In this document: piece by piece, positions 1,787 to 3,515 of the stretch | How the letters are laid out: the number at the start of each line of letters is the position of its first letter | Numbering within the stretch: position 1 is the first letter of the stretch | Virus record (IMG/VR): IMGVR_UViG_3300017780_003104 | Span: 1-64,000 of that record | Length of the DNA stretch: 64,000 bases | DNA from: a virus | Taxonomy: Duplodnaviria > Caudoviricetes | Reading direction: 5' to 3' (one strand) | Position numbers and translations under genes: made by a program | Notes under the pieces: model-generated | What the model saw: the letters and a program-made list of their open reading frames with translations, nothing else | Databases searched by the model: none | Told to the model about the DNA's origin: nothing

Positions 1787-2350
1787 TTAGAATAACGGGG
1801 TTGTAAGTTCTTGTTCAATTTTTAATTGAAGTTTAGACTCTACCGCTTGCTTAATATATTTATCAGCAGCTGCATAGTTTTTTGTTAAAATGGCATCAAT
1901 AAAGTTTACAATATTGACATTTTCATCAAATGTTTCCTTTCTATCATAAGAACCTTTACCCTTTTTTGGAGATTCAACCTTAGTAGCAGGAGCAAATTTC
2001 TTACGATCCTTGACATTTGGACCCTTGATGGTTGCTTTGCCAGTTTTTCTCATTTGTTTTCCGATTGATTGTTCGTCTTCTTCACCTCTGATAGTATCCC
2101 TTGAAGGTTTTTTTGATTTGTTTTGTTTTTTGAAATTGCTATCGATTTGTTTATCATCCCACGCATCACCAAGATTTCTAGGTTTACGTTTTCCTCTAAC
2201 CTGAACACCTTCATCTTCAGCTTTACCAAACTCTTTTTTTTCTTGTTGTGATTTTGGACTTCTCATCCAATGGGGTGGGACTTCCTTTTTGGAATTCGAT
2301 TCCACTATCGCACCATTTTCTCTTTTTCGGTTTTCTGTCTTAGCTGGCAT
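1787..2350 (-). CDS. Prohead core protein, gp67-like C-terminus with Lys-rich N-terminus containing an ArfA-like motif
   Basis: C-term NFIDAILTKNYAAADKYIKQAVESKLQLKIEQE resembles T4 gp67 (LIEAIKSNDLVAARKLFAEAM); lies between gp21 and gp22; internal KVESPKKGKGSYDRK. Confidence 0.6.
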   Translation of the reverse strand: MPAKTENRKRENGAIVESNSKKEVPPHWMRSPKSQQEKKEFGKAEDEGVQVRGKRKPRNLGDAWDDKQIDSNFKKQNKSKKPSRDTIRGEEDEQSIGKQMRKTGKATIKGPNVKDRKKFAPATKVESPKKGKGSYDRKETFDENVNIVNFIDAILTKNYAAADKYIKQAVESKLQLKIEQELTTPLF

Positions 2351-2355
2351 GGTAT

Positions 2356-2362
2356 TATTTAT
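2356..2362 (-). promoter_or_regulatory. Late promoter ATAAATA (gp67-like gene)
   Basis: 5 nt before ATG 2350. Confidence 0.7.
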
Positions 2363-3027
2363 CCTAAAGAATTTATAAACTTGATTACTTGTTCACGTAA
2401 AAATGAATCAGCATCTTTTTTTGGAAGTTTAGATATAACTTTTTCAAAATTATCATACATCTCTTCAAATCTTCCTTCATTATCAATCACAAAAGATTTA
2501 GATTCTAATATACCATTAACGAATGCTTTTGGATATGATGGATCTGCAACAGCATCGATAGCTACTAGATACATATTTTGAACTAAATTGTGATCATTTG
2601 CTTCTTTCAATGAACCTAATGCTCTAGTTGACACGCCTACTTTAACACCATCATTGATAAGCGATCTTAAAATCTGACCACATGGGGTTGACAACACTTT
2701 CGACTTACCATGAAACCCACCATCAGCTTCATATAGTTCAGTAACTAAGTGACACGCTCTTTCTAAATTGACATCAGCACTAGAAGGGTGATTAAGTTCA
2801 CCCATCGCTCTTCCGGGTTCAACCATCTCTTGTATATATCGTTGGACATCTTTACGAGTATCATCTAATCCATATAGTCTTTTATTCTTATTGACTATAC
2901 CACAACCAATGAATGGTCCTTTAATATATAATGTCGACTGTCCTTTTAAATTAGCTTGCTCTTCAAGATATTCAAAATTGTCAAATGCTTCTGGATTTTC
3001 AGCTATCAGCTTTAATTGTAATGCCAT
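2359..3027 (-). CDS. gp21: Prohead maturation protease (gp21-like)
   Basis: LYIKGPF, NKNKRLY, AMGELNHP, GVSTRALGSL, DAVADPSYPKAFV motifs. Confidence 0.96.
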   Translation of the reverse strand: MALQLKLIAENPEAFDNFEYLEEQANLKGQSTLYIKGPFIGCGIVNKNKRLYGLDDTRKDVQRYIQEMVEPGRAMGELNHPSSADVNLERACHLVTELYEADGGFHGKSKVLSTPCGQILRSLINDGVKVGVSTRALGSLKEANDHNLVQNMYLVAIDAVADPSYPKAFVNGILESKSFVIDNEGRFEEMYDNFEKVISKLPKKDADSFLREQVIKFINSLG

Positions 3028-3032
3028 GTATA

Positions 3033-3040
3033 TATTTATA
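3033..3040 (-). promoter_or_regulatory. T4-type late promoter TATAAATA (gp21)
   Basis: Exact T4 consensus, 5 nt before ATG 3027. Confidence 0.85.
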
Positions 3041-3059: not shown

Positions 3060-3515
3060 TTAGTTTAACTCTTTTTCAGTTATAATAATGAACTCCATTC
3101 CATGTTTCTTGGCGAATTCTTTGGCATATTTCCACTTATCGGTATTATTTTGAAACATCACCTTTTCATATAGTAAGTTGGTTTTACTTTTACCTTTGGT
3201 TGATTTAGGCTCTAGTGTTTGTTTGTGTGGTTTTATTTCCACCAAATATTTTTTAACAACATCACCTTCAAGTATTTCAACAAAATTATCTACATAATAT
3301 TTCCTATTACATCTTTTAACACTATCAAAATATTCAACAATAATAGATTCGGATGACCACCTTAAAATATTATCAGTCTTATCACACCAACGCATGAACT
3401 TAAGTTCTAGTCCAGATCTATATATAATTGGACCTTTTCCTATATATTTTTCAGGATTTATAACTTTATAATATCCTTGATGGAATTTTGGATTTTTATT
3501 AAGACCCAATCCCAT
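3060..3515 (-). CDS. gp4: Head completion nuclease (gp4 / TnsA-like PD-(D/E)xK)
   Basis: NPEKYIG, IIYRSGLELKFMRWCD, WSSE, YYVDNF, LVEIKP, KWKYA..F motifs. Confidence 0.92.
   Translation of the reverse strand: MGLGLNKNPKFHQGYYKVINPEKYIGKGPIIYRSGLELKFMRWCDKTDNILRWSSESIIVEYFDSVKRCNRKYYVDNFVEILEGDVVKKYLVEIKPHKQTLEPKSTKGKSKTNLLYEKVMFQNNTDKWKYAKEFAKKHGMEFIIITEKELN

Follow-up and report, generated by a model that had tools for sequence, protein, structure and literature searches.

An ArfA-tail-like module joined to a predicted prohead-core domain in a T4-like phage

Alternative ribosome-rescue factor A, abbreviated ArfA and also called YhdL (PF03889), is represented in the Protein Data Bank (PDB) by entries such as 5U4I, 5MDV and 5MGP, and its family has, to our knowledge, no known target other than the A site and mRNA tunnel of the ribosome. 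Residues 21–30 of ArfA lie in the A site and residues 31–48 fill the mRNA tunnel, the backbone of residues 25–29 pairs with residues 213–217 of RF2, and the N-terminal minidomain binds W319 of RF2 through L19, L24 and F25 (PMC5378476). Release is abolished by the A18T substitution, and ribosome binding is lost when the protein is cut after M40, the basic run past this residue (to approximately N47) being needed for ribosome affinity (PMC5378476). ArfT of Francisella and BrfA of Bacillus are likewise small rescue factors with a basic tail in the mRNA channel; they are considered to be independent inventions of low sequence similarity, and neither is virion-associated. A KKGGSTNKK stretch of ArfT has been likened to KGKGS (PMC6299226). 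In this study, an ArfA-like segment was analyzed that lies inside the product of the open reading frame (ORF) at positions 1787–2350 of a 64,000-nucleotide stretch of viral DNA (the window), which covers the first 64 kb of a virus record that is complete at 211,724 bp and has terminal repeats (IMG/VR record IMGVR_UViG_3300017780_003104). The ORF is the whole gene of P0001, a modular basic head-core protein of 187 amino acids with a pI of 9.8 and a Lys content of 17.6%; this gene and all other features of the window described below lie on the complementary strand. As judged from the sequences, what is new here is that, in one T4-like lineage, an ArfA-tail module has been joined to a putative capsid-core targeting domain, with a predicted protease site between the two. 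An initial annotation of this DNA had noticed an ArfA-like motif in a Lys-rich region of the ORF and had proposed that a released ArfA mimic could act on ribosomes; the observation is confirmed and the interpretation is partly supported.

The translation of P0001 bears out the motif. The sequence FAPATKVESPKKGKGSYDRK, residues 119–138, is encoded at 1937–1996, so that the annotated span of 1937–1998 began at the right position and ended 2 nucleotides too far. Within it, the ArfA-like core KVESPKKGKGSYDRK (residues 124–138; 1937–1981) is equivalent to R28–K42 of Escherichia coli ArfA, and comparison with the K-12 sequence taken from the genome record agrees with the annotated 11 identities in the 14 positions of VExxKKGKGSYxRK. 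The ArfA Pfam profile and a profile–profile comparison, both suggested as checks at the time of the initial annotation, recover the segment. PF03889 matches P0001 with a bias-corrected score of 27.2 bits (E = 2.6e-6), the curated cut-off being 25.5 bits, and the match covers residues 123–139 only, corresponding to profile positions 25–41 of 44; when all six frames of the 211.7-kb genome were scanned, this segment was the sole match (27.7 bits in the whole-genome scan). A hidden Markov model (HMM) of bacterial ArfA, built from 29 distinct ArfAs gathered by whole-genome searches, scores P0001 at 25.4 bits, whereas 20,000 composition-preserving shuffles reached 14.1 bits at most and the runner-up among 1,771 six-frame genomic ORFs reached 5.0 bits. 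In hhalign, the profile of the module that contains the segment aligns with the 29-ArfA profile over 18 columns with a probability of 97.3% (E = 2e-11), pairing TKVExPKKGKGSYxRKxx with xRVEKxKKGKGSYQRKxK, that is, with ArfA Q27–K44, so that the (K/R)VE ahead of the tail is covered as well. With phmmer, a 39-residue piece reached ArfA chains in the PDB at E ~0.9 only and full-length P0001 did not reach them. When P0001, the module and its free-standing members were compared by tblastn with 50,697 phage records, no useful match emerged, the low-complexity filter being the probable cause. Taken at profile level, these scores indicate that the ArfA-like segment of P0001 is real and beyond chance. 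A reading of the segment as an SPKK minor-groove motif was rejected, its Ser not being conserved (T, K, N, D or V in homologues).

The segment ends a longer conserved unit, module B (residues 95–138; 1937–2068), with the consensus SxxKQMKKxGKATxKGPxVKERKKFAPATKVExPKKGKGSYxRK in alignment A2. The module is strongly basic (15 K/R versus 3 D/E), and its mean column identity over the 62 homologues of A2 is 77%, compared with 28% for the whole protein. P111, K114, R116, A120, P121, G133 and R137 are invariant in these 62 sequences, conservation reaches 90% or more at F119, T123, K124, K129, K130, G131, K132, S134 and Y135, and the KGPxVKERKKFAP half matches the ArfA-like tail in its degree of conservation. 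The pattern indicates that conservation goes by position, and charge alone does not account for it. In the full set of 86 homologous proteins, the ArfA-like motif is kept across homologues of 45–80% identity; G[KRG]G[ST][YF]xR is retained in 68 of the 86 (roughly 80%, or 95% if degraded forms are counted), about half carry a precomputed PF03889 match and three have been named 'ArfA' by JGI. Loss of the motif from orthologues, which the initial annotation had named as grounds for abandoning its proposal, is thus not what the family shows. Searched against 1.84 billion representative proteins, the A2 profile gave 62 matches in all, which make up a phage ArfA-tail module family with the pattern ...KGPxVKERKxFAPxTKxxxPKKGKGSYxRK; P0001 itself scores 89.5 bits (E = 8e-21) over the full module length, a value that is partly circular because P0001:95–140 is the first A2 sequence.

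Like ArfA, P0001 contains (K/R)VExxKKGKGSYxRK, which in E. coli ArfA is R28–K42, the most conserved segment of the ArfA family and the part that, in solved ribosome complexes, occupies the A site and the vacant mRNA entry channel (mRNA tunnel) of the 30S subunit; module B is far closer to this signature than ArfT or BrfA. The similarity is limited to ArfA residues 27–44, namely the end of the β-strand and the tunnel tail, and the region of P0001 that stands in the place of the minidomain, KGPNVKDRKKFAPAT, is basic and predicted to be unstructured. Unlike ArfA, a free-standing protein of ~55–72 residues, the P0001 segment is internal to a 187-residue ORF with a normal stop codon and is encoded in a phage head operon, and an acidic linker is found where ArfA has K44–R48. 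Furthermore, ArfA mRNA is truncated at a hairpin and placed under the control of trans-translation, whereas such RNase III/non-stop regulation is impossible for an internal module. In terms of sequence features, the module therefore shows the motif and reaches the scores of ArfA while departing from it in three defining features, and it would act at most like the tail of ArfA.

Similar tails also stand free in phages. The A2 matches include proteins of 38–77 residues that comprise the whole module in the form ...PKVKERKxxAPPxxxHKKKKGKGSYxRK (group P0255–P0272). P0263 has small genes as its neighbors on a 50-kb phage contig, P0269 lies near a GpA terminase on a 46-kb phage contig, P0256 belongs to a marine replication or mobile-element module and P0270 lies in bacterial-looking DNA. 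A DNA pattern scan showed that KKGKGSYxRK is encoded in at least 116 IMG/VR stretches (loci L216–L329; for example L325:12633-12785, L301:317-466 and L235:9836-9949). Most of the 114 that were analyzed among the matches listed are proteins of 34–80 residues with the pattern NP(I/V)AKxL...(F/Y)(K/R)x(K/R)VVxPKKGKGSYxRK, here termed type 1. These match columns ~5–45 of the bacterial ArfA model with up to 72 bits, and hhalign aligns type 1 with ArfA over 42 columns (probability 98.7%, E = 3.7e-16) and module B collinearly with type 1 over 34 columns (probability 98%, E = 1.8e-13). Type 1 proteins share the PKKG(K/R)GS(Y/F)xR tail with module B; however, they carry an ArfA-like N-terminal NP(I/V)AKxL...F(K/R)x(K/R)V part, whereas module B has KGPxVKERKKFAPATK at this place and is joined to a capsid-core domain. 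The group P0255–P0272, in contrast, has the whole module in common with module B, including PKVKERKxxAPP.

Two type 1 proteins come from cultured phages, and their function is annotation-based: gp30 of Pelagibacter phage HTVC027P, a reported ArfA-domain gene expressed both early and late (PMC12753301), and g10 of Citromicrobium phage RXM, annotated as ArfA (PMC8953757). The gp30 gene (L331:15768-15944, complementary strand) sits immediately upstream of the gene for the small terminase, the two overlapping by a few codons, and its product was deposited as a 'hypothetical protein', the ArfA call appearing only in the 2025 transcriptome paper (PMC12753301). A recurrent fusion of ~118–140 residues was also seen, which joins an ArfA-like N-terminal half to a C-terminal domain of the form ...AGNYTKPxMRKxLFxRIKAGGKGGxPGQWSARKAQMLAxxYKKAGGGY (IMG/VR loci L263:9254-9610, L279:4659-5015, L287:1469-1828 and L292:1617-2033) and is thus a further multi-module basic phage protein with the same tail. 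In the literature, no test of any phage ArfA-like gene and no description of a KKGKGSYxRK-type motif in a head protein were found. The distribution of these tails shows the ArfA-type tail to be a mobile module that is widespread among phages, and phage-borne, nearly full-length ArfA homologues look common and little noticed.

In P0001, module B is embedded in a series of short units. A candidate propeptide, MPAKTENRKRENGAIVE (residues 1–17; 2300–2350), ends in I-V-E and would be removed by cleavage; homologues have I-L-E, I-K-E or I-S-E before SNSKK at this point or start at MSNSKK. It is followed by a first basic cargo module, SNSKK...HW.R.PKSQ...KKPSRDTIR (residues 18–88; 2087–2299), in place of which many relatives have a DUF3008-like module (a weak DUF3008 match in one relative, E = 0.035), and by the acidic linker GEEDEQ (residues 89–94; 2069–2086), which relatives keep in the form EEDEQ(S) ahead of the ArfA-like module. 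After module B comes TFDE (residues 140–143; 1922–1933), a predicted prohead-protease site of the type hydrophobic-x-Glu followed by Asn or Ser, and this precedes the C-terminal helical hairpin (residues 144–187; 1790–1921), which ends in ...TPLF and is the invariant domain of the family, the ...PLF helical domain being found at the C-terminus of 86 of 86 homologues. AlphaFold2 with the family alignment predicts helices at 145–155 and 159–183 with pLDDT values above 90 and disorder over residues 1–140 (pLDDT 50–70). At the same slot between gp21 and gp22, other phages have the hairpin alone (48–60 residues) or the hairpin with a DUF3008-like N-terminus, with long Gly-rich regions, with a CWKGY...NCV module or with the ArfA-like module. 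Because one slot holds the hairpin either alone or with varied cargo, the hairpin is taken as the constant domain associated with the core, whereas the modules N-terminal to it form a cargo that can be exchanged, on acidic EEDEQ-type linkers. With HMMER, the C-terminal ...PLF region of two relatives gave a second weak stretch against the bacterial ArfA model; circular permutation of the ArfA ...AIEALLHDPLF to the C-terminal ...KIEQELTTPLF was considered and rejected, since the ...PLF hairpin stands alone in many phages without an ArfA module.

The gp21 protease of T4 cuts in an (L/I/V/F)-x-Glu context. The candidate sites proposed in the initial annotation fit this context: at TFDE|N, which is conserved, E143 is invariant in alignment A1, P3 is hydrophobic in 89 of 108 sequences and P1' is Asn or Ser in 92 of 108, and AIVE(17)|S near the N-terminus also fits the gp21-type context. 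Cleavage of P0001 by gp21 would follow from the conserved Glu site and the T4 paradigm.

The gene stands between gp21 and gp22, as had been annotated. The gp21-type prohead protease gene (2359–3027; Peptidase_S77, 4e-30; phrog_207, 6e-53) has its stop codon 8 nucleotides before the ATG of ORF 1787–2350, and a gp22-sized scaffold gene encoding 294 residues (898–1782) begins with an ATG at 1782, 4 nucleotides past the stop codon of the ORF; the major capsid protein gene (gp23) lies at 3–836. The order gp21, P0001-family gene, gp22, gp23 is found in nearly all of 80 IMG/VR loci (family alignment, tblastn) and also around the distant relative P0085. The assignment of P0001 as a prohead-core protein is well supported by this context. 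Searches of PHROGs and NCBIfam did not point to any informative family. Like T4 gp67, the gene belongs to a head-morphogenesis block and adjoins gp21; like gp67, gp68 and IPI–III of T4, P0001 is small, is encoded in the gp20–gp23 block and combines a helical hairpin with charged disordered regions, and it has predicted hydrophobic-x-Glu processing sites, the T4 proteins being processed by gp21. It differs from them in that the hairpin is C-terminal rather than N-terminal, the cargo is basic rather than acidic, and the gene is placed between gp21 and gp22 rather than between gp20 and gp21. The more specific label 'gp67-like', given in the initial annotation, fares less well. T4 gp67 lies between gp20 and gp68 whereas the P0001 gene lies between gp21 and gp22, and hhalign paired LIEAIKSNDLVAARKLFAEAM of gp67 with FIDAILTKNYAAADKYIKQAV of the hairpin in a weak match only (E = 0.011, probability 3.8%). 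Pfam GP67 (PF17634) gave no match at E values up to 10 in P0001 or in hairpin-only relatives, and the 120 gp67 homologues gathered were too alike for a useful profile. With Foldseek, the AlphaFold2 model had no significant counterpart in BFVD (threshold E ≤ 0.001), and a 'prohead core protein' of Pseudomonas phage PspYZU05 at E = 3.1 has no evidential weight. The link between the hairpin and gp67 is weak, and these searches do not establish homology.

A Cys-flanked cargo module, CWKGYxKxGxKKKxGKxVxNCVKE, recurs in the P0001 family (P0028, P0056, P0085 and others) and is absent from P0001 itself. A protein of Acidovorax phage ACP17 (P0092, L008:3690-4430) has a similar motif, CQPGYKW...RACVK, together with the C-terminal KALGL ending of T4 gp68, which suggests that modules pass among prohead-core proteins.

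A late promoter had also been annotated for the gene. This stands at the level of the operon, where a perfect late-promoter-like box, TATAAATA, at 3033–3040 lies 5 nucleotides upstream of the gp21 ATG and is a candidate operon promoter as a consensus match only; ORF 1787–2350 itself has a one-mismatch box, GATAAATA (region 2351–2366), also 5 nucleotides before the ATG. Boxes of the TATAAATA type are not enriched across the window (13 found, 13.0 expected). Late transcripts of T4 start ~6 nucleotides downstream of the box, and if the same holds here then the mRNAs of gp21 and ORF 1787–2350 would be leaderless or nearly so. Directly upstream of gp21, a 151-residue protein (3060–3515) has a TnsA-like endonuclease N-terminal domain (Pfam, identical gene in L001); a gene of this kind directly precedes gp21 in the distant relative L005 as well, and its product may be an endonuclease of the homing type that has become fixed in the head operon. 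The capsid protein of the phage is ~32% identical to those of cyanomyoviruses and of Acidovorax phage ACP17. The phage has 22 tRNA genes, one of which, at 196159–196232 outside the window, was called by ARAGORN with anticodon CUA (labeled tRNA-Pyl) and is a potential amber suppressor. A protein identical to P0001 is carried by 23 metagenome contigs; the sample codes of the gene-bearing contigs (LIAN20, KRAE22) look like lake surveys, the habitat being read from the codes.

The favored reading, to which a probability of roughly 0.45 is given, is that P0001 is a core cargo which the protease can release and which binds the 30S mRNA channel when this is vacant. On this view the phage, a deep-branching T4-like one, has in P0001 a prohead-core ('internal') protein of modular build. 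The 44-residue C-terminal hairpin presumably docks the protein in the gp22/gp21 scaffolding core, and the variable N-terminus is a string of short basic cargo modules with acidic linkers between them. The gp21-type protease would cut at hydrophobic-x-Glu before the hairpin and free a basic peptide of ~45–50 residues, whose module (residues 95–138) belongs to a family of phage ArfA-tail peptides, its last 15 residues corresponding to the segment of ArfA that is conserved best. Once free, the peptide would bind ribosomes with an empty mRNA channel, most likely after ejection with the DNA, and may compete with or modulate host rescue factors; alternatively, it may act with another partner through the conserved KGPxVKERKKFAP half. 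Direct support exists for the motif and its conservation, for the domain architecture and synteny, and for the free-standing versions, and from the T4 paradigm or the likeness to ArfA we infer cleavage, packaging, ejection and ribosome binding of the peptide. A still more specific form of this reading, in which hundreds of capsid copies of the ArfA-tail peptide are targeted to the core by the hairpin, released by the protease and ejected with the DNA to engage empty-channel ribosomes of the host, small freshwater bacteria, before phage expression, seems distinctly unlikely.

Several observations weigh against ribosome binding by the P0001 peptide. The 15–18 aligned residues cannot separate common descent from convergence, and a Lys/Gly-rich peptide could bind DNA or the acidic scaffold. 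About 13 of the 86 homologues have an eroded motif (KKGAGSY, KKGKGAY, KSKKAYDRK or PSGKNYKRK) and five lack the ArfA-like module altogether while retaining the gene, a tolerance that fits a less demanding role such as charge neutralization. Of the basic run that follows M40 in ArfA, only R137–K138 remain before the acidic ETFDE, and homologues also run into acidic linkers; the exchangeability of the cargo, the eroded motifs and the missing distal basic residues together fit a less demanding, nucleic-acid-binding role. P0001 has no counterpart of the ArfA minidomain (A18, L19/L24/F25), the Pfam and hhalign alignments starting at approximately ArfA residues 25–27, and neither an RF-1-domain gene nor a tmRNA was found in the phage genome. 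The main rival explanation is a structural or DNA-condensing core peptide, whose basic modules neutralize DNA or bind the acidic scaffold in the prohead, as other basic internal head proteins do, and whose ArfA-like signature, being a good binder of nucleic-acid backbones, was borrowed or arose by convergence with no role at the ribosome. Such a role would suit a gene of the gp21–gp22 operon at ~80 loci, a pI of 9.8, 15 K/R in a 44-residue module, a region predicted to be disordered, and cargo that is swapped for unrelated basic or Gly-rich modules or is missing. However, invariant Gly, Pro, Ala and Tyr positions are unexpected for a function of charge alone, the same module occurs in free-standing small phage proteins outside head operons, and the signature together with its (K/R)VE marks out a family with the ribosome as its only known target. 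We regard this explanation as somewhat less likely, and ribosome binding is preferred, only moderately, because the module stands free outside head operons and carries a signature of ribosome targeting. Chance resemblance in a low-complexity Lys-rich stretch, with neither common function nor common descent, might be suspected from a match of only 15–18 residues rich in K and G; against it stand the shuffle control, the bias-corrected Pfam score, the hhalign E value of 2e-11 and the persistence of the motif across homologues of 45–80% identity, and it is barely conceivable.

RF2-dependent rescue by an ArfA mimic, as proposed in the initial annotation, is unexpected from the sequence since the minidomain counterpart is missing. 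In a complete ArfA analog the released peptide would recruit RF2 (or RF1) and free peptidyl-tRNA from non-stop complexes, with KGPxVKERKKFAP replacing the minidomain. The upstream half is indeed as conserved as the tail and is kept in free-standing versions, and the module size of 44–49 residues is near that of mature ArfA. BrfA reportedly recruits a release factor through a different N-terminal part. ArfT likewise shows that other N-terminal parts can recruit release factors (PMC6299226). P0001, however, has no similarity to ArfA residues 1–24, which hold A18 and the patch of L19/L24/F25 contacting W319 of RF2, and its short basic tail runs into acidic residues, so that this explanation is considered highly improbable. 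A co-fold of residues 95–145 with E. coli RF2 scored 0.10 against a mark of 0.34, a result that counts neither for nor against binding. The missing RF2-activating minidomain makes a channel binder or sensor likelier than a classical ArfA.

Ribosome rescue has so far been treated as cellular housekeeping, and phage ArfA-domain genes have been mentioned only as annotations. If the P0001 peptide is indeed loaded into the virion, ejected and bound by host ribosomes, it would be a virion-delivered translation effector, and maybe a new class of rescue or anti-rescue factor in which the KGPxVKERKKFAP half replaces the RF2-binding minidomain. If it does not bind ribosomes, KKGKGSYxRK would serve nucleic-acid binding in general, and 'ArfA' annotations of phage genes that are based on Pfam would have to be revised. 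If it does, no earlier cargo of a phage head would have been directed at translation, and the peptide would offer a minimal natural probe of the vacant mRNA channel.

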